Position numbers and translations under genes: made by a program. The notes under the pieces are model-generated. The model searched no databases, had not been told where the DNA came from, and saw only the letters and a list, made by a program, of their open reading frames with translations. Source: an uncultured Gammaproteobacteria bacterium (GTDB lineage: Bacteria > Patescibacteriota > Patescibacteriia > Magasanikbacterales > UBA922). Taken from it: DNA of 64,000 nt. Positions 12,400-63,290 of the stretch are shown in pieces. The stretch covers positions 12,680-76,679 of the forward strand of contig CAZQHU010000002.1 of NCBI GenBank assembly GCA_964592785.1. Direction: 5' to 3'. Positions within the stretch are counted from its first letter, which is position 1. Each line of letters opens with the position of its first letter.

Positions 12400-12581
12400 G
12401 ATTTTAATTTTATGTTATGATATTTCGTCATCTAGTTATTTCCAATACCGTTGTAACGGGATAGTGTTTTTACACTATCGGAAATAATAGGATGATAATG
12501 GATGAATCTAAGTAGGTATGGGGTGTTCTAGTTCTAGGTTCCCTCGTGTTCCGTTCTAAACCCTCACCGAAAGGAGACACC

Positions 12582-12854
12582 ATGTTCAGTTACCGGATTT
12601 ACGACCACACCACGTTTCATACTGGTGGAACCGCTACAATTTTCTTTCATGTCGGTGATATCCGAATGCTTGGGCTCAATGGGACAACGATCGGATTTGT
12701 CGATGTGGAAAAAATGAGATGGTTCCGGTTTAACGGCAGAAAGCTCGCGAAAGCGAGAGTAATTCAGGCGCCAGGAATGGAAGAAACCTTCCGACCTGGC
12801 ACTGACATTCTCATCTTCGTGAGCAAATGTCGTCCCGCATATATCTTGGTCTGA
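12582..12854 (+). CDS. Small hypothetical protein (90 aa) in GC-rich island 1; paralog of the 57992-58291 protein
   Basis: Strong SD aaaggag 6 nt before the ATG. GC far above background. It shares the leader/start architecture and peptide motifs with island 3 (N-terminal FS..IxxHTTF versus FSLSVHSTSF; AKxxxxxxxG; KC). The ORF-track start at 12546 lacks an SD. Confidence 0.5.
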   Translation: MFSYRIYDHTTFHTGGTATIFFHVGDIRMLGLNGTTIGFVDVEKMRWFRFNGRKLAKARVIQAPGMEETFRPGTDILIFVSKCRPAYILV

Positions 12855-12861
12855 CTTTTGC

Positions 12862-12903
12862 CCCCGGGTAACGCGTAATGGCGACCCGGGGCTTCACTTT
12901 TTT
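12862..12903 (+). terminator. Intrinsic terminator closing GC-rich island 1
   Basis: ccccggg...cccgggg stem with a 16-nt loop, then cttcac and a T6 run. Confidence 0.6.
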
Positions 12904-13396
12904 ACTCAATTTTTTTTATATTTTTCGCTTTATCAATAAACAAAACCCCATCCAAATGATCCACTTCATGCTGAATCACTCGCGCGAAATAACCATGAGC
13001 TTTAAATTTTATTTCTTCACCATGTTCATTCCAAGCTCGTACTTCAATATCTGAATATCTTTTCACTTTGCCAATAGTTTTGGGAACTGATAAACAACCT
13101 TCTTCTTCTACATTGGTTTTACGACTAGTTTTTTGCCAAATAGGATTTACCAAAACCAAGTCAGCGATGGGTAGTTTATTTTTTTTATCCATTTTTAGAG
13201 CTTCTTGGCCAATGATACAAAGACGAATATTATGTCCAATTTGTGGAGCTGCCAAACCAATGCCATCGGACTCATACATTTTGGGGATCATCTCCTCAAT
13301 CAATTGTTGAGTTTTTTTTAATAATAAAAAATCACGGTCAATTTCTTGGGAACGTTCTCTAAGGGAAGAGGTTGGTAGGGTAATAATAGACAGCAT
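12902..13396 (-). CDS. def: Peptide deformylase
   Basis: Def motifs GLAAPQIG, EGCLSVP and HEVDHLDG. Confidence 0.95.
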   Translation of the reverse strand: MLSIITLPTSSLRERSQEIDRDFLLLKKTQQLIEEMIPKMYESDGIGLAAPQIGHNIRLCIIGQEALKMDKKNKLPIADLVLVNPIWQKTSRKTNVEEEGCLSVPKTIGKVKRYSDIEVRAWNEHGEEIKFKAHGYFARVIQHEVDHLDGVLFIDKAKNIKKIE

Positions 13397-13467
13397 ATTT
13401 TTATGTCACCCCTGCGAAGGCAGGGGTCTAATTGAGATTCCTGCTTTCGCAGGAATGACAGCTTATT

Positions 13468-13758
13468 TTATTCTTTTTTTTGCTTTTTGTCAAGGCTAGG
13501 CACTTCTTTACTTTTCCAAATAAAAAGCTTGCCAGGAGTGCTGGCGTTACTTTGTTTAATTTCCGAAAAAATTCTTTGAGCCTCTTTTACTCCAATCCTC
13601 TTGATAACTCCCAAATACATGGCAAATTTTTTTCTTTCTCCAAAAGCAGTGGAAATTTGATCCGCCCAATAATGTACTTCTGAATGTATATTTTTATTTT
13701 TTTCTTTTCTGGGCTGAATGAGTTTGCCAATACTGTCCATATTTTTAATCCAAAACAA
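13468..13758 (-). CDS. Hypothetical small protein
   Basis: ORF only, 96 aa and basic; no recognisable family. Confidence 0.3.
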   Translation of the reverse strand: MFWIKNMDSIGKLIQPRKEKNKNIHSEVHYWADQISTAFGERKKFAMYLGVIKRIGVKEAQRIFSEIKQSNASTPGKLFIWKSKEVPSLDKKQKKE

Positions 13759-14536
13759 AATTTCCTACTAAATAACCCACACCAAAAGGGCCTTCATAAG
13801 AGTAATTTTTGAAATTATAATTTACCCCTTGGAGTATTCCTAATAAAATGAGAATTGAGCGATAGCCACATTCAGCAGCTTCTTCTACAAGCTTGGGATC
13901 AAGTTTACTAAAACCCAAAGTATTGTGGTTTTCCAGAAGTTCGATAACATCTTGATCAAACTTAGTCCCGGCTGGTGAAAAGCCGGCGGGGGCGCCGGTG
14001 GCCAAAGCGTGTGATAGATCTCCAGAAGCGATTACTGCCACACGTTTGCTGGTATTCATGAATGATTCTTTCATAAGTTCACCAAAATCAAGATGCTGTT
14101 TATTATCCAAAAGACTATAACCGACCGGTAAAATTCGACAGTTTGGTAAATGAGTAGTCAAATAAAATAGTGGTACTGTAGTGCCATGATCCAAAAGCTC
14201 TTCACTAATTAGCTGAACTCTCATATTGAGATCATTGGCCGCATGAGCGATGGTAGAAGCAAGTGATGGTTCTCCTTGCCAATTAAGTTTAGTTTTTAGA
14301 TCGCCAAATTCGGCAAAATTTGAAGAAAAATTGGTGTTGGCATTGAGACAAAAAGCATCAGGAAAGAGACTGCCGTGAGGAGAAATAACAACTATTACAT
14401 CTGGCTTGGATAGATAAAGATCTTCCTCGAGTTTGTTTAGAGCTTTTTTAGTTTGTTCAACTTTGGCGATTTCCTTTTTTCCTATATCTGGTATAAGAAG
14501 CGGGGGATGAGGAGTAATTCCAGCAAATACTAACAT
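13745..14536 (-). CDS. Extradiol dioxygenase class III subunit B-like / MEMO1-family protein
   Basis: N-terminal GITPHPPLLIPDIG and a His-rich fold typical of the LigB/MEMO superfamily. Confidence 0.5.
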   Translation of the reverse strand: MLVFAGITPHPPLLIPDIGKKEIAKVEQTKKALNKLEEDLYLSKPDVIVVISPHGSLFPDAFCLNANTNFSSNFAEFGDLKTKLNWQGEPSLASTIAHAANDLNMRVQLISEELLDHGTTVPLFYLTTHLPNCRILPVGYSLLDNKQHLDFGELMKESFMNTSKRVAVIASGDLSHALATGAPAGFSPAGTKFDQDVIELLENHNTLGFSKLDPKLVEEAAECGYRSILILLGILQGVNYNFKNYSYEGPFGVGYLVGNFVLD

Positions 14537-14545
14537 AAATAAAAA

Positions 14546-16798
14546 TTAAAAATTATTAATTACCCAATTGGTTAATTTTTCTGGTTCATCAAAACGACGA
14601 TTGTATTCTGCATTACCCATGGTGATGATAATAAATTTTTTACCATCTAGTGGTCGTTCTATGAGCATGGCCAAACCAGCACCGGCTTCATCCAGATATC
14701 CGGTCTTGCTGGCAATTATATTAAACGACAAATTTGATTTATTAGCAAGATCATTACTGTTATTATCAAAATGTTTAGGTTTGCCGTCAAGATCTTTTAT
14801 TTCTAAATATTCGTAACTTTTTAATCCTAAAGTTTTTTGTAAAGTGTCATTGGTTACCGCCTTAGTGAAAATAAACAAAAATTCTCTAGCAGTGCCAACG
14901 TTTTTCAAATCATAACCATAGGTATCAGTAAATTTGGTTTTTTCCAGGCCCCAAGATTTTATTTTTTCATTCATTTTTTTAACCATTAATTTTTCACCAC
15001 CCAGTTCATTGGCTAGCATTTTGGCGGCAGTATTGATGGAAGAAACCAACATGGCTTCTAGTAAATTCTGATTTTTTATTTTTTCTCCTTCGGCCACTCG
15101 GAAATTATGATAAGCTGATTTGTCTAAACTGCCAGCGTAAGTGTGGGAATGATTTAGTTGTAACCCCGCATGTAAAAATTCATAGGCTGACATGATTTTG
15201 GTAAAAGAGGCTAGGGGACGAACAAAGTCTATATTTTTTCCAGCTAAAATTTCGCCAGTTTTGTAATCCGCTACCAGGTAAGTGTCTAGATTGGTTTCAA
15301 ATTTTTTATCACCAACAAAAATTGTTGTTGTGGCTCTGATCATTTTCTCTGTGTCACCAACTCCGCCATTATCCACTTGGGTGGTTGGCGGTGTGGAAGT
15401 TTGTTTTTCATCAAGAGAAGTGTTCAGGCGTGAAGGTAGGTAAAGAGGCTGTCCGGAAGGGTGATTCATGCCGGTTATTTGATCAGTCCAAATAATGTTT
15501 TTCCAATTAAAGCCAAAACCATTAAAAACTTCTTCTGAAGCAATGTGGCGTTTTTTGCCTTTTTCAATTACATAAATTTTATTATCCCCCTTGATTCCCA
15601 TAAGTGTGCCATCTTGAAATTTGAGGATCTCACCAGTAGTGTAATTTTGTAATTCAGTAATTGAAACCATTTCAATTTGTAGATTGGGAAAATTAATTTT
15701 GGCAATTTGTGAATCGGTCAAGGGATAATAGAAATTATCTTTTAAATAATAAAGGGAATTGGTTTCTTTGGTTTTGACCAACCGTCCTATGGGTGCAGTC
15801 TCCAAATCAGTAGTGATCACTGTACCCATGTTATAACCCAGCAAATCGCTGGGAGAGACATCGATTATTTCTTCTGGATTGTAACCAAGACTTCTCACTA
15901 CTTCTTCTGATGCAAAAGGACGAATGGTGTCAAAATCTATTAAATAATAATTTGAACCTTGGCGTAAAATAGAGTAATTGGGAAAATTTAATTCTTTACC
16001 ATCGGCATAATTGGCCAATTCGGAAGCTGGTATAGTGATTACCATTTTTGGGTCAAAACGGCTGGCTAAAATTCCCATACTTTTGATTAGTCTTTTGGTT
16101 CCATCTTGTAAAAGATAGACAGCTGGATTATTGGAAGTTTTTACCAAAGAACCATCTGGGTAAACTTGGCCAAACCATTCATTCCAAAGTTTCCAAAAAT
16201 TTTTATTACCATGAAGATGTGGGGTATAGGTGTAGAGAAAAGCAGTGGCAAAATTTTTGGGAATCACTATTTCCCCGTCAATTACATAGGAACGATTGGG
16301 TCGTTTGATCCATACTTCGGTGAAATAGTTATCATAGTACCAACGAATTATGCCGGCGGCCGCATCTACTTGTTTGCCAAAACCTTGATTTTTACTATCA
16401 CAGCCACCAGAATCAGGGCAACCATAGCCAGTAGCGAAATCAAGCTGTCTTTGAGTTGGATTTTTGACAGTGATGAGACTCATTTCTTTTTGCAATTTAA
16501 CTAGCAAATATTTAGGGTTTATTTTGTATTCTTGGGCTGCTCGGTAAATAATATCTGCAGTTTTGCGTTCAATTCCATCCTTGTCTGCAGTTCGCCAATT
16601 GGCAATGTAACCATCAAAATCATCCAAAAATGCTTGGATTTCTTCTCTGGTAAGACTGTTATATTCCTGCATTTCTTCATCAGAAATAATGTAGTTAGGA
16701 TTAAAATTATCTTTGCCAATTGTCAGAGCAGAGGAATAACTAACTAAAAAAAATACTGATAAAAACAAAATATAAGCTATTTTTTGGGCTTTATTCAT
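14546..16798 (-). CDS. Secreted D-alanyl-D-alanine carboxypeptidase-family (PBP5/S11-like) protein with a large N-terminal extension
   Basis: Signal peptide MNKAQKIAYILFLSVFFLVS; C-terminal about 250 aa with an SxxK-type motif (RPLASFTK) and the S11-like region. Confidence 0.55.
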   Translation of the reverse strand: MNKAQKIAYILFLSVFFLVSYSSALTIGKDNFNPNYIISDEEMQEYNSLTREEIQAFLDDFDGYIANWRTADKDGIERKTADIIYRAAQEYKINPKYLLVKLQKEMSLITVKNPTQRQLDFATGYGCPDSGGCDSKNQGFGKQVDAAAGIIRWYYDNYFTEVWIKRPNRSYVIDGEIVIPKNFATAFLYTYTPHLHGNKNFWKLWNEWFGQVYPDGSLVKTSNNPAVYLLQDGTKRLIKSMGILASRFDPKMVITIPASELANYADGKELNFPNYSILRQGSNYYLIDFDTIRPFASEEVVRSLGYNPEEIIDVSPSDLLGYNMGTVITTDLETAPIGRLVKTKETNSLYYLKDNFYYPLTDSQIAKINFPNLQIEMVSITELQNYTTGEILKFQDGTLMGIKGDNKIYVIEKGKKRHIASEEVFNGFGFNWKNIIWTDQITGMNHPSGQPLYLPSRLNTSLDEKQTSTPPTTQVDNGGVGDTEKMIRATTTIFVGDKKFETNLDTYLVADYKTGEILAGKNIDFVRPLASFTKIMSAYEFLHAGLQLNHSHTYAGSLDKSAYHNFRVAEGEKIKNQNLLEAMLVSSINTAAKMLANELGGEKLMVKKMNEKIKSWGLEKTKFTDTYGYDLKNVGTAREFLFIFTKAVTNDTLQKTLGLKSYEYLEIKDLDGKPKHFDNNSNDLANKSNLSFNIIASKTGYLDEAGAGLAMLIERPLDGKKFIIITMGNAEYNRRFDEPEKLTNWVINNF

Positions 16799-16828
16799 AG
16801 GTTTTTATTATAGCATATTTTGAAGAAT

Positions 16829-16861
16829 AAAAAAACTGCCCAAAATGGGCAGTTTTTTTAT
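16829..16861. terminator. Bidirectional intrinsic terminator
   Basis: Hairpin aactgcccaaaatgggcagtt flanked by an A-run and a T-run. Confidence 0.7.
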
Positions 16862-17172
16862 TTTCTCGCTTCTATTCTATGTTTATCAATAAGAGCACCT
16901 ATTAAAAGTCCTATAAATACTCCTACTAAAATAGTAATAAGTGGTAATCTAATACCCAATAAATTTTGAAAAAAACTATCTATTGAAGCCACAGGGCCAG
17001 CAGGATTTAGAAAAAAATCATAATCAAACCAAGTAATTATAAAACCTATTATAAAACCAAAGACTCCACATTTTATAATCATTGTTTTTTTTGATTTCAC
17101 GGTAATCATAAATATCCCAATAATGAGTATAATTGGTGTAATTATAATCATATACCACAGGAAATTACCCAT
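16858..17172 (-). CDS. Small integral membrane protein (hypothetical)
   Basis: 104 aa with three hydrophobic helices. Confidence 0.4.
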   Translation of the reverse strand: MGNFLWYMIIITPIILIIGIFMITVKSKKTMIIKCGVFGFIIGFIITWFDYDFFLNPAGPVASIDSFFQNLLGIRLPLITILVGVFIGLLIGALIDKHRIEARK

Positions 17173-17197
17173 ATTTTTTAATAAAAAATTAATTAAT

Positions 17198-19834
17198 TTA
17201 TTTTATCAAAATTTTATTTTTTTCCACCTCGATCTTTACATTTTGTCCTTCTTGAATTTTACCTTCAATAATCAAAAGCGAGAGGGGATTGAGGACTTCA
17301 GTTTGGATTAAACGTTTGAGTGGACGAGCACCAAGATTGGGATCATAACCTTTTTTACCCAAATAATCTTTGGTTTTCCCCAAAATATTGAGAGTAATCT
17401 TTTTTTCAGAAAGACGGTCAATAACTTTTTGAAGTTGTAAATCCACAATTTGTCGAATTTCTTTTTCTCCCAGAGGGTGGAACATAATTATTTCATCAAG
17501 ACGGTTGAGAAATTCTGGTTTGAAGTTTTCTTTGAGTTTTTCTAGGATTTTTTCTTTAATATTTTCTTCGCGATTTTTTCCATTTTTTTTGTTTTCAACT
17601 CCAAAACCAAATTCTCCACCTTTGTTCATCTGCATGATTATTTCTGAGCCAATATTACTGGTCATGATGATGACCGTATTTTTGAAATTTATCTTTCTTC
17701 CTTTAGCATCGGTTAAATGTCCATCTTCGAGTATTTGCAACATCATATTGAAAACATCGGGGTGAGCTTTCTCTATTTCATCAAAAAGAATCACAGAATA
17801 AGGCCGACGACGAATTATTTCAGTCAGTTGTCCTCCTTCTTCATAACCAACATAGCCAGGAGGCGAACCAATCATTTTGCTGGTGGAATGTTTTTCCATA
17901 TATTCACTCATATCCACTCGGACTAGGGCTTCTTCATCGTTAAAAAGAAATTCTGCCAAAGCTTTGGCTAATTCTGTTTTGCCAACTCCAGTCGGCCCCA
18001 TGAAGATGAAGGAACCAATAGGTCGTTTTTCTTCACCAATCCCTGCGCGTGAACGACGGATAGCGTTGGCTACTGCGGTGATGGCCTCTGTTTGACCGAT
18101 CACCCGTTTGGAAAGTTCGGCTTCTAGATGGGCCAATTTTTTCACTTCATCTTGAAGCATTTTGGAGACTGGAATACCAGTCCAACGTGAGACTACACCG
18201 GCAATATCTTCTTCAGTAACTTCTTCTTTTAAAATTATTCTACCTTTTTGAATTTCCGCCAATTTTATTTCATTTTTTTTGATAGCTTCTTCCAGTAAAG
18301 GAACTTGTCCATAGCGAACTTCGGCTACTTTTTGTAAATTGCCACGACGTTCTTCTATATCGGCTTGAGACTTGAGTTTCTCAATTTCTTTTTTGTGTTC
18401 GCGAATTTTAGTAATGATATCTTTTTCATTTTTCCAATGAGCTTCCAGTTCATTACTTTTTTCTTTGAGATTGGCTAATTCTTGTTTTAATTTTTTTTCT
18501 CTTTCTTTTGATTCTTGATCAGATTCTTTTTTCAAAGCTCGCAGTTCAATATCTATTTTCATCATTTTGCGTTTCATTTTATCAAGATCATCAGGCATGG
18601 AATCTATTTCCATACGAAGTGCCGAGGTGGCTTCATCTACCAGGTCAATAGCTTTATCAGGTAAAAATCTATCGGTAATATAGCGATTACTAAGCTCTAC
18701 CGCTGCCACGATCGCTGGATCGGTGATACGCACACCATGATGAACTTCATATTTTTCTTTTATTCCACGTAAGATGGCGATAGCATCATCCACTGCAGGT
18801 TCACTCACCAAGACTGGTTGAAAACGACGTTCAAAAGCCGCGTCTTTTTCAATGTGTTTTTGGTATTCTTTCAAAGTAGTGGCGCCAATAGTGTGAAGTT
18901 CGCCACGAGCCAAAGCCGGTTTCAACATATTGCTAGCATCAATTGCCCCCTCACTTGAACCAGCACCGACAATAGTGTGCAATTCATCAATGAACAAAAT
19001 TATTTTACCATTGGATTCTGTCACTTCTTTTAAAACTGCTTTGAAGCGTTCCTCAAATTCACCACGAAATTTTGTCCCGGCTATAAGAGCCCCAACATCT
19101 AGAGCAATCACTTCTTTGTCTTTGAGACTTTCTGGTACGTCACCATTGACAATTCTTTGAGCCAAACCTTCAACAATTGCTGTTTTTCCTACACCAGGTT
19201 CACCAATTAAAACTGGATTATTTTTGGTTCGTCTAGACAAAACTTGCATTACTCGACGAATTTCATCATCACGACCGATCACTGGATCAAGTTTTTCTTT
19301 ACGCGCAAATTCTGTAAGATTTTTTCCGTATTTTTCCAAAGCTTGATATTTGCTCTCCGGTTCAGGGGAATCTACTTTTTGGTTACCGCGAATTAAAACT
19401 AAAGTTTTCAAAATCTCAGCGTATTGAATTCCCTGATGAGAGAGAGTATCACTAATCGGATTTTTATTGGTCAAAAATGCCAAAAGCAGGTGTTCTACTG
19501 AAATATAATCATCACCCATTTTTTGGGCTTCATTTTGAGCGTTTTGTAAAATATACATCATGGCTGGACCAAGCATTATTTGTCCCAAACCACCAGCTGG
19601 AGAAGAACCAAATTGTTTGGGCAGAACCCCAATCATTTTTTGAACTTCCAAACGTAATTGTTCCAAATTGATATTTAACTTTTTAAAAAGAGAAATAACC
19701 ACACCTGCTTCATCTTCTAAAAGTGACAAAAAAAGATGGGGCGGTTCTACTTGTGGCTGACCATTTTCATGGGCTATTTGTGAAGCTCTTTGCAGGGCTT
19801 CTTGGGATTTATGGGTAAAATTTTGTGGATTCAT
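17198..19834 (-). CDS. clpB: ATP-dependent chaperone ClpB (Hsp100)
   Basis: Two AAA+ modules ([18 protein letters not shown]; [15 protein letters not shown]), a middle coiled-coil domain and a Clp N domain; 878 aa. Confidence 0.95.
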
Positions 19835-19942
19835 AAAGTTTTGTCACCCTGAACTTGTTTCAAGGTCTTTTTTAGGTTTTATTTTTTAGTAAATATAATT
19901 TTAGAAAAGATGCTGAAATAAATTCAGCATGACAATTCTATC

Positions 19943-19961: not shown

Positions 19962-19976
19962 TAATATTATACTATA

Positions 19977-49091: not shown

Positions 49092-49174
49092 ACAATAAAT
49101 TAATTAATAAAATTGTTTTAACCGGCAATAGTATACTCTAAATATAAATACTTTTCAATATTATTTGTGGATAA

Positions 49175-49207
49175 AAAAATAACCAGTAATTTCGGTTATT
49201 TTTTAAA
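49175..49207. terminator. Bidirectional intrinsic terminator
   Basis: aaataaccagtaatttcggttattt flanked by an A-run and a T-run. Confidence 0.6.
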
Positions 49208-49298
49208 AAATATTTTATTCCCCCACCCCGCGCCGGATCTTACCTTGTCTTAAAAAGACTTGGCAGAAATTCCGGCGCGGGGGCCTCGGCAGGTCGGC

Positions 49299-49775
49299 CT
49301 AGAAGACCAAGAAACGGAAACGGTACCTGAGATCATCGGTCCCAAGAGGTTCGAGCACCAACCCGTAGGCGGGGATTCCGAATCTCTGCTGGAACCACTG
49401 CAGACCATCATGAGCGGTCTGAATGTTCTCCAGATCACCCAAACCGCCATCGGCAGCAGCGTGGCAACCGACCACCGAACCCCGTCCGATGTGGGTGATC
49501 CCCACGAAGTGTGTAGGCTGGAAGATCCTCACCGCCCGCTCCAACAACTCACGGTTGTTGAATGGCGACCCTTCTGCCAGCCCGAGAATGGTACCGGGAG
49601 TAGCCACGACGTGCTTATCCCAGCCCTTGGAGCCGGCAGCACAGTCGATCCCCATCATCAGTTTCACGGAAAATCGATCATCTGAACACACGGCAAAAAG
49701 CACGCGTGCACCCTCCGGAATCAACAGTTCACTCAACTTGACCACATCAACCATAACTGAAGTAACTTCGGGCAT
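49299..49775 (-). CDS. Hypothetical 158-aa protein in GC-rich island 2
   Basis: About 60% GC in a roughly 33% GC background. SD GAGGTG 5 nt before the ATG (MPEVTSV...). Plus-strand ORFs here look non-proteinaceous. No family recognised; weak flavodoxin-like/CxDxR-like hints only. Confidence 0.45.
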   Translation of the reverse strand: MPEVTSVMVDVVKLSELLIPEGARVLFAVCSDDRFSVKLMMGIDCAAGSKGWDKHVVATPGTILGLAEGSPFNNRELLERAVRIFQPTHFVGITHIGRGSVVGCHAAADGGLGDLENIQTAHDGLQWFQQRFGIPAYGLVLEPLGTDDLRYRFRFLVF

Positions 49776-49855
49776 CTGACACCTCACTTTTCTTTGTTTA
49801 TTACCGGTTTCCGCCGGTACGGTTCCCTTTCCGCCGAGGAAGGGTGTTGCTAGAA

Positions 49856-49884
49856 CTTATATCAAAAAATCTTAAAAAAGTCAA
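49856..49884 (-). promoter_or_regulatory. Sigma70-like promoter driving island 2
   Basis: Minus strand TTGACT, a 17-nt spacer, then TATAAG; about 90 nt upstream of the ORF. Confidence 0.55.
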
Positions 49885-49888
49885 GACA

Positions 49889-49918
49889 AAAAAACAGCCG
49901 AATAATGGCTGTTTTAAA
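49889..49918 (-). terminator. Intrinsic terminator after the SnoaL-like gene
   Basis: aaaaacagccattattcggctgttttttt on the minus strand. Confidence 0.7.
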
Positions 49919-49933
49919 AAATATTTTATTTTA

Positions 49934-50363: not shown

Positions 50364-50801
50364 TTATTCTTTAATATTAATCTTCTTATATTTCTTCCCT
50401 ACTCTCACTCGATTCATTTCACGATCAATCACTGCTTGCAACTTGGCATAATCCACATTTTCTTGTCCTTTAACTTTGGCCATTTCTTCTTCAGCACGCC
50501 TTCTCGCTTCTTCAGCGCGGTCAATATCAATTATCTCCGCACGTTCAGCATTATCAGCAAGAATAACTATTTCATTGTTGGCACGAACCTCCAAAAAACC
50601 ACCAGAAACAGCGATGATATGCTCACCTTCTTTATCTACAATTTTAAGTTCACCAGCTTGTAAAATTGAAACAAGTGGCGAATGATGCGGTAAAACAGTA
50701 ATTTCACCAGTAGTTGTTGGAATGGAAACTTGAAGAACATCGTCTTCATAAACAACTTTTTCTGGTGTAGCGATTTTGAAGTGGATTGTTGACACTGACA
50801 T
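50364..50801 (-). CDS. atpC: F1 ATP synthase epsilon subunit
   Basis: N-terminal beta-sandwich and a C-terminal helical hairpin; it is the last gene of the atp operon. Confidence 0.85.
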   Translation of the reverse strand: MSVSTIHFKIATPEKVVYEDDVLQVSIPTTTGEITVLPHHSPLVSILQAGELKIVDKEGEHIIAVSGGFLEVRANNEIVILADNAERAEIIDIDRAEEARRRAEEEMAKVKGQENVDYAKLQAVIDREMNRVRVGKKYKKINIKE

Positions 50802-55745: not shown

Positions 55746-55748
55746 GTG

Positions 55749-56318
55749 CTATTTATCTAACTTTTTTAATGAATTTTGAATAAGTAAAATATCTTTCTTC
55801 TCATCCAACTTCTCTTCCAAAATTTTCTCTACAGCTGCTACCACCAAATTAGCAGTCTCAACTTTAATACCACGCATTACTTCTTCTTTTTCGTCTTTAA
55901 TTTTTCCTCTAGCTTGTTCTACTAAATTTTCAATTTCAGTCTTGGCCTTGGCTTTCATGTCAGCTGTCAAACGTTCTCCGTCGGCTCCAGCACGCTCCAA
56001 AATTTTATTATATTCTGCTTTGGCTTCTTCCATTTTTTCTTGAAACTTTTGATTACTCATCACTAAATTTGCTTCCACTTCTTTGGCTTTGTCTAGACTC
56101 TCATCAATTATCTTCTTGCGTTCTTCAAGTTTACTGGTCAAAGGTTTCAAAATAAGAAACCAAACAATCGCTGCCACAATAGCAAAATTGAGAAGTTGAA
56201 AAGCAAATAGTTGGCCGTTTAAACCAAGAGAAGCAGCAACACTCTCATTTCCGGCTGATTCAGTAGTGTGTTCTATGGTTGCCTCTTCAGAGGCATATGC
56301 AATATTAACTAAATTCAT
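55749..56318 (-). CDS. atpF: Fo ATP synthase b subunit
   Basis: N-terminal TM helix followed by a long charged helix. Confidence 0.85.
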   Translation of the reverse strand: MNLVNIAYASEEATIEHTTESAGNESVAASLGLNGQLFAFQLLNFAIVAAIVWFLILKPLTSKLEERKKIIDESLDKAKEVEANLVMSNQKFQEKMEEAKAEYNKILERAGADGERLTADMKAKAKTEIENLVEQARGKIKDEKEEVMRGIKVETANLVVAAVEKILEEKLDEKKDILLIQNSLKKLDK

Positions 56319-56375
56319 AATTTTTAATTTTAAATAATTTCATTCTACCGGACCAAATTGATCCGGTAAATAAAA

Positions 56376-56660
<285 letters not shown>

Positions 56661-56686
56661 TCACCGTTGATATTTAATTAATTATT

Positions 56687-57475
56687 TTAATGTTCCTCTG
56701 ACCCATGAGGTTCTGAACTTGCTACTGTTAAGTAAACAATTGTCAACATAGAAAATACTGCCGCCTGAATAAGACCAACTAATAATTCTAATAACATAAA
56801 TGGTGTTGGTACAAAAGCAGCCACTAGTGCAGAAATAACGGAAATAAGCACTTCACCAGCAAAAATATTACCGAAAAGACGGAGAGACAGGGATAAAATT
56901 TTAGCCACTTCCGAAGCAATTTCAATAATTCCAACCATAAATTCAATCAAAGCAGTAAAAATAGCAATCGGTCCTTTTTTAATACTCTTGACAATATTGC
57001 CAAGCTGAACAAACTTACCAAGATGAGTAAAAAAACCAATGGCAAAAAAAGCATAAACATGAGAAGCCAGCACAGATATCAAAGCCATAGCCAAAGTCAA
57101 ATTCAAATCAGTATTGGCCGGTCGTAAAACAAAAGTGTGCCCAAGAGTCAGACTGCCAGTACCTGGAAGGAGACCCAACCAATTTGATAATAAAATAAAA
57201 AAGAAGATAGATCCGACTATTGGTAAAAACTTTATAGTCTTTTTTCTATCTCCTGTCACTTGATCAAAATAACCTAAGATACTTTCTAAAAAATATTCAC
57301 AAACATTTTGTAATTTACTTGGTTTGAGACTCACTCTACGGCGCAAAGCAATCCCCAACCCCAAGAAAATCAAAATTGCAATCCAGGCATTCACCATAGT
57401 ATTGGTGATGCTAATACTACCAATATGAAACAAAACATCTGGTGCAAGGGTAGGAATGTGAATTTGTCCTGACAT
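56687..57475 (-). CDS. atpB: Fo ATP synthase a subunit
   Basis: Polytopic protein; conserved Arg in LSLSLRLFGNIFAGE. Confidence 0.92.
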   Translation of the reverse strand: MSGQIHIPTLAPDVLFHIGSISITNTMVNAWIAILIFLGLGIALRRRVSLKPSKLQNVCEYFLESILGYFDQVTGDRKKTIKFLPIVGSIFFFILLSNWLGLLPGTGSLTLGHTFVLRPANTDLNLTLAMALISVLASHVYAFFAIGFFTHLGKFVQLGNIVKSIKKGPIAIFTALIEFMVGIIEIASEVAKILSLSLRLFGNIFAGEVLISVISALVAAFVPTPFMLLELLVGLIQAAVFSMLTIVYLTVASSEPHGSEEH

Positions 57476-57477
57476 AA

Positions 57478-57753
57478 CTATTCTTTTTTGTCATTGCTTC
57501 CCTTTTCAATATTTTGATATTCTTTTCCGTAAGCTTTGGCTTTCTTATAAATCATCTTGCCAGAAAGTAATACTGCCAAGACAAAAGCCAAAACTGTAAA
57601 CCATGGACTCTTTTCATATTTGCCGTCCAACCACTGCCCAATAATAACAAAAATGATTATTGGCACCGCAATGGTTGCCCCAAAATCTCCGGCGATACGT
57701 AATCCCATTAACATATACTTCCGGTCGTTTGGATCAGACGGCAAAAGGCTCAT
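57478..57753 (-). CDS. atpZ: AtpZ/AtpI-family small membrane protein
   Basis: 91-aa two-TM protein immediately upstream of atpB. Confidence 0.6.
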   Translation of the reverse strand: MSLLPSDPNDRKYMLMGLRIAGDFGATIAVPIIIFVIIGQWLDGKYEKSPWFTVLAFVLAVLLSGKMIYKKAKAYGKEYQNIEKGSNDKKE

Positions 57754-57921
57754 ACACTAGTCTCGCCGTAGCTTGCTGAGTGGCAAGCGAAGGCAGATTG
57801 AAAAGAAAAAGCACTTTTTTAAAGTGCCGCTATTTTACCCTATTTCAAAACCCCCGTCAAGTGTATTTTTTAGTTAGAATGTGGATGAAAAACAACTCAA
57901 TTTTAATATCCACAATAAGAC

Positions 57922-57950
57922 TTGACAATTTTCAAAACTTTTGCTATATT
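57922..57950 (+). promoter_or_regulatory. Near-consensus sigma70 promoter driving GC-rich island 3
   Basis: TTGACA, a 17-nt spacer, then TATATT. Confidence 0.65.
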
Positions 57951-57970
57951 TAGCGGTCCAATCGGGGACC

Positions 57971-57985
57971 CCTCCTTGAAGGAGG
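57971..57985 (+). promoter_or_regulatory. Perfect hairpin CCTCC-TTGA-AGGAGG sequestering the SD of the island 3 ORF
   Basis: cctccttgaaggagg is a 6-bp perfect stem; AGGAGG is the SD, placed 6 nt before the ATG. Confidence 0.6.
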
Positions 57986-57991
57986 AACACC

Positions 57992-58291
57992 ATGCATTTT
58001 TCACTGTCCGTTCACAGCACCTCGTTCCTGATCATGGTCATCAGAAAGAGAGGGCGTAGGATTGCTGCGTTCGCAGGGCCAACTCGAGAAGACATCCTGA
58101 GACTGATGAATGGCATGGGCTACGACCCCCAGGAGATCTCCACCGCGCATGAGGCCACACCGCGACACCTGGAAATGATCGCGAAATACCAGGCGCGATC
58201 GTTCGCCGGCTTCATCATTGCGATGATGAAGAGTGGAAAATGCTCCGAAGAGTCCTACTACATCGGTGAACTCTACAAGCGCGCTGGCTGA
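57992..58291 (+). CDS. Small hypothetical protein (99 aa) in GC-rich island 3; paralog of the 12582-12854 protein
   Basis: Consensus promoter and AGGAGG SD; GC-rich; leader, start and peptide motifs shared with island 1. Confidence 0.55.
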   Translation: MHFSLSVHSTSFLIMVIRKRGRRIAAFAGPTREDILRLMNGMGYDPQEISTAHEATPRHLEMIAKYQARSFAGFIIAMMKSGKCSEESYYIGELYKRAG

Positions 58292-58443
58292 GCGAGTCTC
58301 AATCATCACGAATGCCTCCAGCATGCCCGGCACGCAACCACCCCACCAGTGCCGGCATCGTTCTTTCCCACCACTCCGGCACACCCCAGTTATTATCTCT
58401 AGAAGGTAATAAATGAAAAAAACCGGAGTGAGTGAAGAAAAAT

Positions 58444-58481
58444 AAAAACAACTTTAAATTTTAAGGTTGTTTTTTATTTTT
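58444..58481. terminator. Bidirectional intrinsic terminator (serves island 3 and tatD)
   Basis: aaaaacaac...ggttgttttttattttt. Confidence 0.7.
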
Positions 58482-58508
58482 CCTCCTTTCGCAAAGGGAG
58501 GAATTAAA

Positions 58509-59459
58509 TTATACTTTTATTTTATTGAAAAGTCGTAAAGCATTTTCCAAAGTAATTTTCTCCACTTCCTCAACAGATAAATGCCTAATCCCCGCAATTT
58601 TCTTCACCACTTCTTCCACCATCCAAGGTTCACATTTTTGCCCGCGATAAGCTTGAGGGGCCAGATATGGCGCATCGGTTTCCACCAAAATTCTATCCAA
58701 AGGACATTTTTCCACAACTTCCAATAAATCCAATGTTGGTTGAGGATCAGTTTTACGTGCAGGAAAAGTGATGACACCAGTGAAACCAATATAGAGTCCC
58801 AAAGTAAGGAATTTTTCTGCTTGTTGCCAATTACCGCCATAGCAGTGGACTACGCCCCAAGGTTCATTCCGAATCCCGCTCAAGCGGAGTGAGGAATCTT
58901 TCGAAGTAAGAACCTGTTGAATTACATTAGAATTGTGTACCCCAAAGTTATCTTCTCCGAAAGATTTCTCGCCTTTTAGTCTCGAAATGAGTGGAAACAT
59001 CTCATCGTAAGCATCGCGAATGTGAATAACAAGAGGTAAATTATGCTTTTGCGCAAAATTATATTGCTTAATAAAAATTTCTCTTTGTTTCTCTAAAACT
59101 TTTTCTTTATCTAACTCTTCCGGAAGATGAAAAAGTTCCAGCCCACACTCCCCTACTGCTATCACTTTTTTTGACTGTGCCAATTCATCATAAAATTTTT
59201 CATCAAAATCTTCTTCGTGCGATAAAAAACTGGATTCTTCCTCGTCTACTTGTTTGGCATGAAGGTGAATTGGATGAAGACCAATTGTCGCATAAATATT
59301 TTCATATTTTTCTGCCATTTCCACAGCTTTTTTACTGGTGTCCATTTGTGTACCAACAGCATTCATAACCACACCTTTCTGACGACAACGCGACAAGACG
59401 GCCTCGCGGTCGTCTTGATATCCTTGAAACTGAATATGACAATGAGTATCAATCATCAT
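58509..59459 (-). CDS. tatD: TatD-family metal-dependent hydrolase
   Basis: MMIDTHCHIQF and later His/Glu/Asp motifs; contains an in-frame repeat-element insertion at 58862-58898. Confidence 0.88.
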   Translation of the reverse strand: MMIDTHCHIQFQGYQDDREAVLSRCRQKGVVMNAVGTQMDTSKKAVEMAEKYENIYATIGLHPIHLHAKQVDEEESSFLSHEEDFDEKFYDELAQSKKVIAVGECGLELFHLPEELDKEKVLEKQREIFIKQYNFAQKHNLPLVIHIRDAYDEMFPLISRLKGEKSFGEDNFGVHNSNVIQQVLTSKDSSLRLSGIRNEPWGVVHCYGGNWQQAEKFLTLGLYIGFTGVITFPARKTDPQPTLDLLEVVEKCPLDRILVETDAPYLAPQAYRGQKCEPWMVEEVVKKIAGIRHLSVEEVEKITLENALRLFNKIKV

Positions 59460-60001
59460 AAATTATCTGCCAGTACATCTTCCATATAGTCAACTGAAGA
59501 TCTCAAAAGTTTCAAAGCTTCTGGTACAAAAGGTAATAATATCGCTGCAATAGATACTGTATAAGGTACGACTACTGAACCAGCCATCCAGCCCATAAAA
59601 CGCTCGGAAAGTGGTATTCTTTCAATAAAATAAAAAACTATCCCCAAACTAATAAGACCTTCCAAAAGTCCAAAAATTAAACCCAAAAAGCGATTGATAC
59701 CTCTAATGAAAGGCAAATAAGTAATAACATTGGTAGTCTTTTCTATTATCCAAAAAACAAAACCAACTAAACGGTTGATCACCACAAAAGCAATAATGAA
59801 CATGAGCACTTTGGAAAAATTGTCTCCCCAACCAGTAACTCCGATAAGCCAATCAGCCATCGGGCCATAGTAGCGAGTAGCCAAATAAACCCCAAATATT
59901 GTTCCCAAAAGAGAACCTAGAGTATGGATAAGTCCAAACCAAAACCCAAACATTCCAAAACCAGCAATGATAATGAGGAGAATGATGTCAAACAGGCCCA
60001 T
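59456..60001 (-). CDS. cvpA: CvpA-family membrane protein
   Basis: MGLFDIILLIIIAGFGMFGFWFGLIHTLGSLLGTIFGVYLA pattern. Confidence 0.8.
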   Translation of the reverse strand: MGLFDIILLIIIAGFGMFGFWFGLIHTLGSLLGTIFGVYLATRYYGPMADWLIGVTGWGDNFSKVLMFIIAFVVINRLVGFVFWIIEKTTNVITYLPFIRGINRFLGLIFGLLEGLISLGIVFYFIERIPLSERFMGWMAGSVVVPYTVSIAAILLPFVPEALKLLRSSVDYMEDVLADNL

Positions 60002-60094
60002 ATAGATTAATTTTAAAATTAAAATTTTTAATTTTTATTGACCCCTGCCGGACGGAAGCTTGGTTTTTTGCTTCCGTCCGGCAGATTCTGATCC

Positions 60095-60286
60095 TCACGA
60101 CATCTTTTCAACACTTTGTCCTCGAGTCAGCCACTGCCAACCCACAACGAAGTAGTAAGCAGTGTGTCTCCAGACAAGACCGGAAATGTACCAATACCGC
60201 TGCCTAACCGTAAGCGGCTTGGTATCCATCTTGACAACACCGACCCCCTTGCCCCACCATAGAGTCTTTTCCGCTGAAGTAGCCAT
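60095..60286 (-). CDS. Small Trp-rich hypothetical ORF (64 aa) in GC-rich island 4
   Basis: AGGGGG SD-like sequence 7 nt before the ATG (MATSAEKTLWWGKG...); GC-rich; a 16-bp perfect hairpin follows. May be a structured RNA rather than a protein. Confidence 0.3.
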   Translation of the reverse strand: MATSAEKTLWWGKGVGVVKMDTKPLTVRQRYWYISGLVWRHTAYYFVVGWQWLTRGQSVEKMS

Positions 60287-60297
60287 TGGCAAACCCC

Positions 60298-61830
60298 CTA
60301 TTTTTCGAGCCGTGGAAAAAGAATTTCCTTTGCGCCTATGAGAGATCCCCCCCTAAGCGCGCCCCATGTTACTACTTTATCACTTGTATTTAATTGATTC
60401 AATATCTTTTCCGCAGTCTCGGGAATAATCGGAAATAAAGCCACAGCAATATGACGCAAACCTTCAGCTAGCTGATATAACAAACCAGAAATGTCTTCAC
60501 CAGCTTTGGCTTTTTTCCAAGGTTCTTGTTCAGAAATGAAACCGTCTAATCCTGCAACAAACTTATTTATTAAATTAACAACTTCTTCAAATTTATATTC
60601 ACCTAAATATTTATTATACTCTGTCCAAAAACTTTCCACTTTCCACTTTCCACTTTCCACTTGAGGAATCTTTGATTCCGAATATTTTTCAACCATTGTT
60701 AAAATCCTACTAGTCAAATTCCCTACTCCATTTACAAGATGTGCGGTATAAAATTCTTCAAAACGAGTAATACTAAAATCACCATCATCATAAGCTGGCA
60801 TGCCTCCAAGCAAAAAATAACGTACTGCATCTGTACCATATTTTTCAACTACTTTATAAGGTTCCACTACATTACCAAGAGATTTACTCATCTTTTGTCC
60901 TTCAGAAGTAATAAATCCATGAATAAACACTTGTTTTGAGTTTGGTAAACCAGCTGACATGAGCATTGCTTGCCACATAGCAGTCTGCTGACGTAAATTG
61001 TCTTTACCAGCTACTTGTACTCCCGGCCAAAACTCTGTATATAAGTCGGGTTTACCCGCCGAAGCTTTAGCGTAGATGGGCTTGTCCGGCGTAGCCTTGG
61101 CGAAGCCGGGCCAACCGAGTGTGGAAATATAGTTTATCAAAGCATCAAACCAGACATACATTACTTGCGTTTCATCTCCTGGTACAGGAATACCCCAAGG
61201 CATTTTTTCAGCCAATCTAGAAATACTAAAATCTTCCAAACCTCGCTCAACAAAGTTTTTAATTTCTAGCTGTCTATTTTGAGGTATAACAAAATTTGAA
61301 TTTTTTTCGTATAATTTTAATAAAGGTTTTTGGTATTTAGAAAATTTAAAAAAATAATTTTCTTCTTCAATTAATTCCAATTCCAAATTGGGGTGAACTG
61401 GACATTTACCATCAACTAGCTCTGAATCCGTTTTTTCCAATTCACAACCTACACAATATTTAACACTATAATTCTTTTTATAAATATCACCATTTTTTTC
61501 ACATAATTTCCAAAATTCCTGAGCAGCTTCTATGTGATGTTTATCAGTGGTGCGAATAAAATTGGTATAACTTAAATTCAAAGCTTGCTTCAAAGAATCA
61601 AATTTAGCAGCATATTCATCACAATATTTTTGTGGGTCAATTCCCAACTCTGTGGCTTTGCGAAAAATCTTTAGGCCGTGTTCATCCGTACCAGTATTAA
61701 AAATTACTTCTTCACCCAATAATTTGTGATAACGAGCGAGAACATCAGCTTGAATAATTTCCAAAGCAAAACCGATGTGAGGTTCAGCGTTTACATATGG
61801 CAAGGTGGTTGTAATATAATAGTTTTTCAT
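60298..61830 (-). CDS. metG: Methionyl-tRNA synthetase
   Basis: TTTLPYVNAEPHIGFALE (HIGH), KMSKS, and a zinc-knuckle CxxC...CPVH. Carries a (ttccac)4 insertion and a 30-nt tandem duplication. Confidence 0.95.
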   Translation of the reverse strand: MKNYYITTTLPYVNAEPHIGFALEIIQADVLARYHKLLGEEVIFNTGTDEHGLKIFRKATELGIDPQKYCDEYAAKFDSLKQALNLSYTNFIRTTDKHHIEAAQEFWKLCEKNGDIYKKNYSVKYCVGCELEKTDSELVDGKCPVHPNLELELIEEENYFFKFSKYQKPLLKLYEKNSNFVIPQNRQLEIKNFVERGLEDFSISRLAEKMPWGIPVPGDETQVMYVWFDALINYISTLGWPGFAKATPDKPIYAKASAGKPDLYTEFWPGVQVAGKDNLRQQTAMWQAMLMSAGLPNSKQVFIHGFITSEGQKMSKSLGNVVEPYKVVEKYGTDAVRYFLLGGMPAYDDGDFSITRFEEFYTAHLVNGVGNLTSRILTMVEKYSESKIPQVESGKWKVESFWTEYNKYLGEYKFEEVVNLINKFVAGLDGFISEQEPWKKAKAGEDISGLLYQLAEGLRHIAVALFPIIPETAEKILNQLNTSDKVVTWGALRGGSLIGAKEILFPRLEK

Positions 61831-61833
61831 AAC

Positions 61834-61858
61834 TTAGTAAGTAGTAATTAGTAAATAG
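61834..61858. repeat. Left 25-bp perfect inverted repeat flanking the four-helix-bundle gene
   Basis: ttagtaagtagtaattagtaaatag; its exact reverse complement lies at 62244-62268. Confidence 0.85.
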
Positions 61859-61861
61859 AAA

Positions 61862-62224
61862 TTAGGATAGGTTAGATTCTGTAGATCGAATTAAACCATT
61901 AATTAACTTTGCAATTTCAATACTTTGTTCACCTAATTTCCGACTTATTATACCATCAATAAAATTTAAATCTTTAGCTAATAAAATAAAATTTTGGACT
62001 TCTGCCACTGAACCCCTAGCTTGATAATAAAATCTTATTTTATCCTTAAAATGATATCTAGCAAAACCTTCAGCAATATTGGCAGTTATGGAACTAGAAG
62101 CTCTTCGTAACTGACTAATAATTCCATATAATTCTTCTCTTGGCAAATCATTTGTCATCTTATAAATTTCTAATACTAGCAAATGACCCTTCTTCCAAGC
62201 ATCTAGATCATAAAAATTCATCAT
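61862..62224 (-). CDS. Four-helix-bundle protein of the 23S rRNA intervening-sequence (IVS) protein family
   Basis: MMNFYDLDAWKKGHLLVLEIYKMTNDLPREELYGIISQLRRASSSITANIAEGFARYHFKDKIRFYYQARGSVAEVQ is typical of the TIGR02436/S23-IVS family. Confidence 0.8.
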   Translation of the reverse strand: MMNFYDLDAWKKGHLLVLEIYKMTNDLPREELYGIISQLRRASSSITANIAEGFARYHFKDKIRFYYQARGSVAEVQNFILLAKDLNFIDGIISRKLGEQSIEIAKLINGLIRSTESNLS

Positions 62225-62243
62225 AAAAAAGTTACTAGTTACT

Positions 62244-62268
62244 ATTTACTAATTACTACTTACTAACC
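62244..62268. repeat. Right 25-bp perfect inverted repeat; supplies the last codons and stop of rsmI
   Basis: ctatttactaattactacttactaa is the reverse complement of the left copy. Confidence 0.85.
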
Positions 62269-62984
62269 ACCACCACAAATTCCCCTTTTTCACTAATATT
62301 CATTTTTAAAATTTCTTGAATTGTTCCTCGATAAACAGTTTCAAATTTTTTGGTCAACTCACGACAAACGCAAATCTGTCGTTTTTTATCCAAAACTTCG
62401 GCCAATTCGCCCAAACATTTCTTGATCCTATGTGATGATTCATAAAAGGCCACAGTATATTCTGCTTTAACCACTTCTTTAAAAAATGTTTGTCGGCCTT
62501 TTTTGTGTGGAGGAAAACCGAGAAATAAAAATTTATTCGTATCAAACCCTGATATAGATAATGCAGTTATAACTGCGCTTGGACCTGGGATTGGCACTAC
62601 CACGTCATCCTGAGCGATAGCCGAAGGATCTCTTTCCTCAACGAGATATTTCGACTTTGCCCTTCGGGCTTCGCTCAATATGACGCTAACAAGTTCATTC
62701 CCCGGATCACTAATCCCTGGTGTACCGGCATCAGTTACCAAGGCCAGATTCTTACCACTTTCTAATAATTTCTCAATTTCCATTAATTTCCCAGTCTCGC
62801 TATGTTGATGATAAGAAATTGTTTTGGTTTTTATATTAAAATGATTCAAAAGTTTTTGGGTATTCCTGGTATCCTCGCATAAAATAAAATCCACGTCCTT
62901 TAAAATTTCCAAAGCACGCAAAGTAACATCACCAAGATTTCCAATTGGTGTAGCCACTATGTAGAGTTTGCCTAGTTCTGACAT
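62256..62984 (-). CDS. rsmI: 16S rRNA (cytidine1402-2'-O)-methyltransferase RsmI
   Basis: LYIVATPIGNLGDVTLRALEILKDVDFILCEDTRNTQKLL; tetrapyrrole-methylase fold; contains a roughly 22-aa insertion. Confidence 0.88.
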   Translation of the reverse strand: MSELGKLYIVATPIGNLGDVTLRALEILKDVDFILCEDTRNTQKLLNHFNIKTKTISYHQHSETGKLMEIEKLLESGKNLALVTDAGTPGISDPGNELVSVILSEARRAKSKYLVEERDPSAIAQDDVVVPIPGPSAVITALSISGFDTNKFLFLGFPPHKKGRQTFFKEVVKAEYTVAFYESSHRIKKCLGELAEVLDKKRQICVCRELTKKFETVYRGTIQEILKMNISEKGEFVVVVSK

Positions 62985-63020
62985 AACAATATTCTATCGA
63001 AAATTGGCTAAAAAAGCAAA

Positions 63021-63048
63021 CTTGATAATAATAAAATATGTGGTAAAA
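63021..63048 (+). promoter_or_regulatory. Putative promoter of GC-rich island 5
   Basis: TTGATA, a 16-nt spacer, then TAAAAT. Confidence 0.45.
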
Positions 63049-63049
63049 T

Positions 63050-63290
63050 AACTTTATCTTGTCAAAGGAGACCTATCTTCGAAGAAAGACAGCACCTACC
63101 GCTACGCAGGGAAAGTGGCTACACGCCGTTCAACTGCCTGGCTATCCTTCTGGATGGCCTCTTCGACCTCGTCGCCCTTCTCCAAGACAAGTGGCGCCAA
63201 GCCGCTTGAACCATTCGCCGGCCAGCTATCCACGCGCCGGCACTTCCAAAAATAAACCCGCCCCACATATTCCGGGGCGGGTATTTTTAT
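63050..63290 (+). ncRNA. GC-rich island 5: candidate small RNA, or degenerated relative of the island 1/3 genes
   Basis: About 240 nt at more than 55% GC between a promoter-like element and a strong terminator. Its only ORF starts at TTG without an SD and encodes a P/R/S-rich low-complexity peptide. Its 5' end (aaaggagac...) resembles the island 1 leader. Confidence 0.3.
63255..63289. terminator. Bidirectional intrinsic terminator (island 5 and the ferredoxin/nifU operon)
   Basis: acccgccccacatattccggggcgggt flanked by A-runs and T-runs. Confidence 0.75.

Follow-up and report, generated by a model that had tools for sequence, protein, structure and literature searches.

GC-rich intergenic islands in a chromosome segment of a relative of Candidatus Magasanikbacteria as probable imported, moron-like single-gene units

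In this study, which was based on a stretch of 64,000 nucleotides (nt) of contig CAZQHU010000002.1 (assembly GCA_964592785.1, positions 12,680 to 76,679; hereafter the window), we analysed five intergenic islands, I1 to I5, that are richer in guanine and cytosine (GC) than the genes around them. The islands are probably five unrelated, independently inserted and recently acquired foreign single-gene transcription units, moron-like and strain-variable, in the chromosome of a bacterium of the Candidate Phyla Radiation (CPR). They are neither one family nor, as a class, RNA. The assignment of the host was based on its fmt gene, whose identity of 63–69% to metagenome-assembled genomes (MAGs) of Candidatus Magasanikbacteria points to a CPR (Patescibacteria) bacterium related to that group. 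CPR bacteria, whose genomes are streamlined and very small, presumably rely on other bacteria as their hosts, and how they gain genes is little understood. Five foreign-looking single-gene units within 64 kb, with at least one of them being exchanged among strains whose flanking genes are 99% identical, show in a concrete and testable manner how genes may enter such a genome. Moreover, they raise the questions of where GC-rich orphans without relatives come from and whether a ribosome that does not use Shine-Dalgarno (SD) motifs can translate structured, GC-rich messenger RNAs (mRNAs) that are led by such motifs.

Composition and expression signals of the islands

The mean GC content of the window was 35.4%, and that of individual host genes ranged from 27 to 43%. 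Against this background, the GC profile together with the neighbouring genes, which were identified by Pfam, confirmed five compositional islands of 226–641 nt in the region where a preliminary description of the sequence had placed them, all of them flanked by housekeeping genes (Table 1). The GC content of 55–65% that was claimed in that description holds for the peaks, as the 80-nt maxima across the five islands were 0.575–0.662, but not for the whole cores, which have 49–57%. In the case of I1 and I5, the GC content was only modestly above the peaks inside the host genes clpB and metG (0.54 in 150-nt windows). Similarly, the claim that every island has its own promoter and terminator could be upheld in part. 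Putative promoters at the level of the consensus, each paired with a terminator, were recognised for I1 to I4, and all five islands terminate in strong GC-rich hairpins, but no promoter was recognised for I5 and a canonical T-tract was present in some of the islands only.

The islands and the host also differed in their translation signals. In the 20 nt that precede the start codon, AGGAG, GGAGG and AAGGA were absent from all 66 host genes of the window; only three of these genes had even a four-nucleotide SD core, and the host leaders were AT-rich. By contrast, a strong SD motif, AAGGAG(G), was present in I1, I3 and I4, and this difference (0/66 host genes versus 3/5 islands) gave p of about 2e-4 in a Fisher exact test calculated by hand. 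Weaker motifs of the SD type were found in I2 (GTGAGGTG, with GAGG), in I5 (GGGGG) and in the cassette with an MshEN domain (GGGG) that takes the place of I3 in sister strains. Across both strands of the whole window, open reading frames (ORFs) of at least 60 amino acids (aa) that lie outside the host genes and follow a strong SD motif and an ATG were limited to I1 and I3. The apparent lack of SD usage in the host is in agreement with reports of many Parcubacteria lacking the anti-SD sequence; the anti-SD motif was undetectable in about half of Parcubacteria (PMC9297842). The terminators, in turn, are GC-rich in the islands and AT-rich hairpins in the host. Because base composition, translation signal and terminator style are all unlike those of the host, we regard them as marks of imported transcription units.

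Previous findings showed that orphan genes normally track the GC content of their host closely and that orphans of phage origin tend to have a lower GC content (PMC11293555), which makes orphans that lie 15–20 points above their host atypical. This bears on the possibility that the islands are native, lineage-specific orphan genes whose high GC content was kept or driven in situ, for instance through gene conversion that is biased toward GC at recombination hot spots or through selection in favour of stable mRNAs. The strain-variable, recombining sites, the absence of outside homologues and the host-like promoters would agree with such an origin. We nonetheless consider it quite unlikely, since the GC content at third codon positions, 0.52–0.69 compared with 0.23–0.35 in the host, is far past the known effects of biased gene conversion, and the SD motifs and GC-rich terminators would likewise need to have evolved in place, although neither is in use in the host. 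Additionally, the MshEN cassette carries a conserved domain at a foreign composition.

Abrupt shifts in GC content at the island borders could also be produced by assembly chimeras or by contaminating GC-rich reads, and six contigs from the ferredoxin side of I4 break at one point in rsmI. An artefact of this kind, which the preliminary description had named as a possible objection, is nevertheless extremely unlikely. The junctions of I1, I2, I4 and I5 were reproduced in independent Logan assemblies, in two to six sequencing runs each, which excludes chimeric assembly for these four islands, and the borders coincide with promoter and terminator signals. I3 itself was detected in no other assembly and was thus seen in the window alone, yet its slot and its 3′ module are common to sister strains.

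Table 1. Positions of the islands and of their features in the window
Feature	Position	Strand	Remarks
I1 spacer, fmt / def	12400-12901		
I1 core	12505-12897		49.4% GC
I1 promoter-like site, TTGACA-17-TATGAT with TG	12393..12421	+	11/12 matches, best of region
I1 5′ leader element, AT-rich, perfectly paired multi-stem	12428..12495	+	fold
I1 ORF, 90 aa, isoelectric point (pI) 9.9	12582..12854	+	SD AAGGAG at 12571-12576 upstream
I1 terminator hairpin, GC-rich, with T-run overlapping def stop codon	12860..12903	+	sequence, fold
I2 spacer, Na/H exchanger gene / SnoaL-like gene	49092-49933		
I2 core	49205-49845		55.2% GC
Left copy of exact 19-bp direct repeat flanking I2, TTTTAAAAAATATTTTATT	49201..49219		
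I2 long 3′ hairpin, GC-rich	49220..49285	-	sequence, fold
I2 ORF, 158 aa	49299..49775	-	GAGG motif upstream
I2 5′ leader, two hairpins	49776..49850	-	nearly identical in distant homologue L003
I2 promoter, TTGACT-17-TATAAG	49856..49884	-	read by eye; kept in L003 homologue
Right copy of exact 19-bp direct repeat flanking I2	49912..49930		
I3 spacer, atpI / tatD	57754-58508		
I3 core	57953-58395		56.4% GC
I3 promoter, TTGACA-17-TATATT with TG	57922..57950	+	11/12 matches, best of region
I3 ORF, 99 aa, pI 9.7	57992..58291	+	SD AAGGAGG at 57979-57985 upstream
I3 3′ module, long imperfect hairpin	58349..58441	+	about 94% identity with MshEN cassette of sister strains
I5 spacer, cvpA / metG	60002-60297		
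I5 core	60040-60297		53.1% GC
I5 3′ hairpin, 15-bp GC-rich stem, without T-tract	60045..60084	-	
I5 ORF, 63 aa, Trp-rich, pI 10.1	60095..60286	-	start 11 nt past metG stop codon
I4 spacer, rsmI / ferredoxin gene	62985-63498		
I4 core	63060-63285		57.1% GC
I4 promoter, TTGATA-16-TAAAAT with TG	63022..63049	+	10/12 matches, best of region
I4 transcript body, about 200 nt	63057..63256	+	SD-like AAGGAG at 63065-63070
I4 bidirectional terminator, GC-rich, common to convergent ferredoxin gene	63257..63290	.	

Insertion and exchange at the island sites

The slot of I3, which lies between tatD and atpI, was found to be polymorphic. In four sister-strain assemblies with flanks about 99% identical to those of the window, it holds a different GC-rich cassette (55–64% GC) that has its own promoter (TTGACA-17-TACTTT) and an ORF of 144 aa with a GC content of 0.60/0.33/0.68 at the three codon positions. 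The encoded protein has an MshEN domain (PF05157; Pfam E = 3.7e-19, 68.9 bits against a gathering cut-off of 23.1) and is unrelated to the I3 protein, as no alignment between the two was obtained. The sole part that both cassettes have in common is the 3′ module of about 93 nt, which is 94% identical and forms a long imperfect hairpin (z = -4.1); in I3, the GC-rich 3′ region comprises about 130 nt. In tatD, there were 27 mismatches in the 700 nt adjoining the slot and near-identity farther off. Such a raised divergence beside the slot is to be expected if homologous recombination brought in a cassette along with its flanks.

In the case of I1, the insertion became apparent from a comparison with relatives. 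The def and fmt genes were adjacent in all 12 of the Magasanikbacteria-like loci that were found using tblastn, and the spacer between them measured 0–95 nt in seven of the eight junctions inspected compared to 502 nt in the window. I1 is therefore a lineage-specific insertion into an operon, to which its own unit is oriented antisense. The eighth junction, in a marine Patescibacteria MAG (contig L012, positions 2500-2830), has a moderately GC-rich def-fmt spacer of about 330 nt for which Rfam gave no match. Insertions may be recurrent at the def-fmt junction.

I2 has a relative in a different genomic context. A large protein search with the I2 protein returned only one orthologue (97%) and one homologue (72%). 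The latter is encoded on another AT-rich contig, L003, where the promoter and the leader are the same as in I2, the GC content is lower and the ORF has a frameshift of 1 nt that was seen in two independent samples. An insertion sequence (IS) element with an rve-family transposase (L003, positions 20-1010; terminal inverted repeats …ACTGTATAGTACACCTT / AAGGTGTACTGTACA…) abuts the promoter of this homologue. A copy that is located beside an IS element, that kept its promoter and leader and that has a lower GC content is consistent with a unit that travels in one piece and becomes more AT-rich by decay.

Both I2 and the I3 slot have features that could be regarded as hallmarks of a hitherto undescribed, trans-mobilised CPR cassette system, in which promoter-bearing single-gene cassettes are inserted site-specifically beside intergenic terminators. 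Its hallmarks would be flanking direct repeats of about 19 bp and a shared structured 3′ module with a role like that of attC, and it would represent a chromosomal, non-phage kind of moron or cassette that is specific to episymbiotic CPR bacteria and is possibly fed by the DNA of their GC-richer bacterial hosts. In line with this, I2 is enclosed by an exact 19-bp repeat with a different AT-rich terminator hairpin after each copy, the alleles of the I3 slot share their 3′ module and differ in promoter and ORF, and the I2 homologue of L003 retains its promoter and leader in a new context beside an IS element. However, there is only one example each of the repeat and of the module. No flanking direct repeats were found around I1, I4 or I5, and a 10-nt repeat at I3 was at chance level. 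The 3′ module occurred at this one locus only when it was sought in the window, in 103 loci and in viral contigs, and a 20-mer of the I2 leader matched the L003 contig alone in the JGI metagenomes, apart from chance matches in GC-rich genomes. Moreover, there is no recombinase in or beside any island, the nearest integrase-family gene lying approximately 9 kb past the window, and the divergence of the flanks fits plain homologous recombination. The existence of such a system is thus improbable, as are the role assigned to its two hallmarks and its being a kind specific to CPR bacteria.

Coding capacity of the islands and the RNA alternative

In AT-rich genomes, intergenic regions of high GC content often harbour more non-coding RNAs (ncRNAs) than other regions, an enrichment (PMC6429828) that is the classic basis of screens for ncRNAs, and the islands might accordingly be structured ncRNAs or RNAs of dual function that owe their high GC content to selection for folding. 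In support of this, high GC content is found over roughly the entire transcription unit, from its start up to the terminator, with the untranslated parts included (60% in the 3′ untranslated region of I3 and 53% in the I2 leader of about 85 nt). The folding z-scores were strongly negative for I1 (-5.7), I2 (-4.5), I4 (-6.3) and I5 (-4.6), the I2 leader is better conserved in comparison with L003 than the coding sequence, and I4 has no canonical ORF, its single-nucleotide polymorphisms (SNPs) being neutral to structure. We still find an RNA nature of the islands unlikely. The predicted fold of I3 was not more stable than those of shuffled controls (z = -1.5), and terminators and leaders supply much of the negative z-score signal in general. 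ARAGORN detected no transfer RNA or transfer-messenger RNA in the window, and Rfam 15 had no match at gathering thresholds over the window; at E up to 10, the islands gave only sub-threshold matches that were terminator-like. Thus, the islands do not each correspond to a distinct known RNA gene, an outcome that the preliminary description had considered fatal to its proposal. On the other hand, the view that it had put forward of a family of regulatory, structured RNAs that contain small ORFs was not borne out either: there is neither an Rfam match nor a sequence or structure common to the islands, and I4 alone is plausible as an ncRNA. Furthermore, screens for ncRNAs in GC-rich regions are reported to recover missed ORFs in roughly one quarter to one third of the cases (PMC6429828).

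The composition of the ORFs points in the same direction. A period of three in GC content that is typical of coding sequences was found in I2 (0.62/0.42/0.64 at codon positions 1/2/3) and in I3 (0.49/0.45/0.69), and a weaker signal of the coding type was observed in I1 (0.47/0.43/0.52) and I5 (0.48/0.48/0.56). When I2 was compared with its homologue in L003 and L004 (72% amino-acid identity), there were 18, 12 and 35 differences at the first, second and third codon positions, respectively, and the ratio of non-synonymous to synonymous substitution rates (dN/dS) against L003 was about 0.29 in the first 90 codons, which indicates that I2 is coding and under purifying selection. The ORF of I5 was also predicted by a gene caller in contig L103, and both of its two strain SNPs are synonymous.

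I4 differs from the other islands in this respect, as no ATG, GTG or TTG was found at a proper distance from its SD-like AAGGAG. Judging from its sequence, the body of I4 would be either a structured RNA or a frame of 44 codons starting at ATC 63075. It has a well-defined minimum-free-energy structure and was almost invariant across six other assemblies. Three strain SNPs were found, all of them structure-neutral: one turns a U.G pair into C-G, and two are at unpaired positions. In the frame from ATC 63075, which is the only coding-like one, the same SNPs comprise two non-synonymous changes and one synonymous change, a comparison of very low power. I4 may therefore be an ncRNA, and it is the only island left as a plausible RNA candidate. 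As for the neighbourhood of I4, the six independent contigs that include the ferredoxin gene all stop at one point in rsmI, approximately at 62600-62625 (L087, positions 10880-10904). At this point, a short segment that is GC-rich and resembles a hairpin is not the same as in the window (ccccgcaaggcggggc instead of cggctatcgc).

Relatives of the islands and their proposed origin

According to the preliminary description, at least two of the islands are paralogous. This was not confirmed by all-against-all comparisons of the five islands using blastn-short and tblastx, which gave chance-level matches only. The likeness between I1 and I4 is limited to the ribosome-binding-site motif AAAGGAGAC (I1, AAAGGAGACACCATG; I4, AAAGGAGACCTATC), and the impression of paralogy likely stems from this shared motif. 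The import of small genes from a background of different composition, which was also suggested there, is supported, since the islands are insertions specific to a lineage or strain, with a foreign GC content, SD motifs and terminators, whereas their description as a dispersed family is not supported because they share no sequence.

No significant match was found in Pfam, PHROGs, NCBIfam or PADLOC for any island ORF, including the alternative frames of I4, and protein and DNA searches of phage records, plasmid records and viral contigs gave no match for I1, I2, I3 or the MshEN cassette. Among 5.8 billion protein clusters, the I1 protein matched only itself and there was no candidate for the I3 protein, which was also absent from a collection of 15 billion proteins. 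A sequence search of the PDB revealed nothing for I1 and I3 and only a match at E of about 1 for I2. With full HMMER (phmmer), the I2 protein matched a protein with 16 tetratricopeptide repeats (TPR; TPR_10/TPR_12) at E = 1e-24, a score that was summed over 12 weak stretches. The TPR-like stretch corresponds to residues ~55-150 of I2, and Pfam found nothing in I2. The predicted model of the I2 protein suggests an alpha/beta fold and not a TPR fold; a likeness to lumazine synthase or beta-carbonic anhydrase was considered for it, and this assignment is as tentative as that to TPR proteins. For I3, the structure predicted from the single sequence was too poor for use (predicted local distance difference test score of 54). 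The I1, I3 and I5 proteins are basic (pI 9.7-10.1) and without obvious signal peptides.

The absence of relatives suggests that the donors were under-sampled mobile elements or lineages. In the scenario that we propose, the units would have been acquired horizontally from donors that are richer in GC and use SD motifs, and would have been only partly ameliorated since then. Among strains, they may spread via homologous recombination through the flanking core genes. Their cargo would consist of small cytoplasmic accessory proteins that are expressed from the units' own promoters, and I4 may act as an RNA. For the allelic cassette, the best mechanistic guess is a module related to cyclic dimeric guanosine monophosphate (c-di-GMP) and pili, as would befit MshEN.

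Several observations weigh against the import of complete foreign units. No donor was found: I1 and I3 have no other homologue and I2 has one distant homologue, which is odd for a transfer from sampled bacteria. The promoters of the islands are AT-rich and host-like, empty sites were observed for I1 only and polymorphism for I3 only, I4 has no canonical ORF and I5 has no promoter of its own. The selection signal in I2 could have accumulated in the donor lineage. The 3′ end of the host 16S ribosomal RNA lies outside the window, and translation of the island ORFs by an SD-less host is a prediction. Additionally, the -35 hexamer of I1 abuts or overlaps the annotated start codon of fmt (ATG 12399), and the expression signal of I1 may thus be partly native. 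The annotated fmt start adds about eight N-terminal residues (12376-12399) that were not found in relatives; the true start of fmt may be TTG 12378, in which case the entire I1 promoter, including the -35 hexamer, would be inside the inserted DNA.

Comparison with known systems

Morons are units of deviant composition that are flanked by a promoter and a terminator (PMC3594210; the Hendrix/Juhala concept). Similarly to phage morons, the islands have their own terminator and, at the level of the consensus in I1 to I4, a putative sigma-70 promoter, and they are inserted between genes that are adjacent in relatives, as was shown for I1, with the slot of I3 being polymorphic. They also deviate in composition from the host (cores of 49–57% GC, host genes of 27–43%), carry small cargo that often has no assigned function and are probably exchanged horizontally. 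Unlike phage morons, however, they are located outside of any phage or prophage, among housekeeping neighbours such as def/fmt, the atp operon, metG and rsmI, their GC content deviates upward, their SD motifs occur in an SD-less host, and searches of viral contigs, phage records and PHROGs revealed no viral relatives. Because the phage context is absent, we classed them as moron-like chromosomal islets and not as morons.

Genomic islets that are exchanged by recombination in their flanks resemble the islands in being strain-variable, in occupying hot spots between core genes and in having an adjacent core gene that is more divergent. In contrast to typical islets, the islands measure only 0.25–0.7 kb with one gene each, five of them lie within 64 kb of the reduced genome of a CPR bacterium, and all are orphan-like and about 15–20 GC points above the host. 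The ncRNA candidates from screens of GC-rich intergenic regions (PMC6429828) are detected by the very signature that the islands have, namely extended GC-rich stretches between the genes of an AT-rich genome. Unlike them, most of the islands have SD-led ORFs, one shows constraint at the codon level, and a conserved RNA motif or an Rfam match was not found. A practical lesson is that GC-rich intergenic regions of AT-rich genomes are not necessarily ncRNAs. Integron cassettes are likewise exchangeable single-gene units, and the slot of I3, with its alternative cargo and shared structured 3′ element, is reminiscent of them. The islands are nevertheless not integron cassettes because they are dispersed, not arrayed, and have their own promoters (with the exception of the promoterless I5); there is also no integrase in or beside an island. 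Visual inspection of the 3′ module of I3, which was the sole element examined and for which no search with an attC covariance model was made, revealed no attC consensus.

Additional observations

Units of a similar appearance were noticed elsewhere. An apparent sixth unit is situated about 8 kb past the end of the window (L087, positions 1600-1910), in a short spacer; it has 52% GC and an ORF of 83 aa that is preceded by an AT-rich stretch, is conserved in seven contigs and has no Pfam match. In another Magasanikbacteria MAG with 43% GC (L017, positions 11215-11880), an analogous unit of 63% GC has a promoter and a terminator. Its ORF encodes a Cys-rich, lipoprotein-like protein of 179 aa for which Pfam found nothing, with a GC content of 0.80 at third codon positions and the SD motif AAGGAGAG.

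Not all of the strain-variable genes in this region are GC-rich. An AT-rich ORF of 104 aa (16856-17197; 27% GC), which has a weak, sub-threshold Bestrophin-like match, is missing from the sister contig L005 owing to an indel of about 330 bp. In the spacer between infA and rpmJ (2926-3035), a long GC-rich hairpin of approximately 100 nt (about 53% GC; z = -3.6) starts with AAGGAG and ends with a T-run. Rfam gave nothing for it at gathering thresholds, and it may be an attenuator or a terminator in the ribosomal-protein gene cluster. Moreover, strains that are otherwise about 99.9% identical differ in dense patches of 12–53 substitutions in fmt (12000-12250), in atpC (50500-50750) and at the C-terminus of I2 (49294-49331), which could be recombination mosaics or the result of some targeted diversification.

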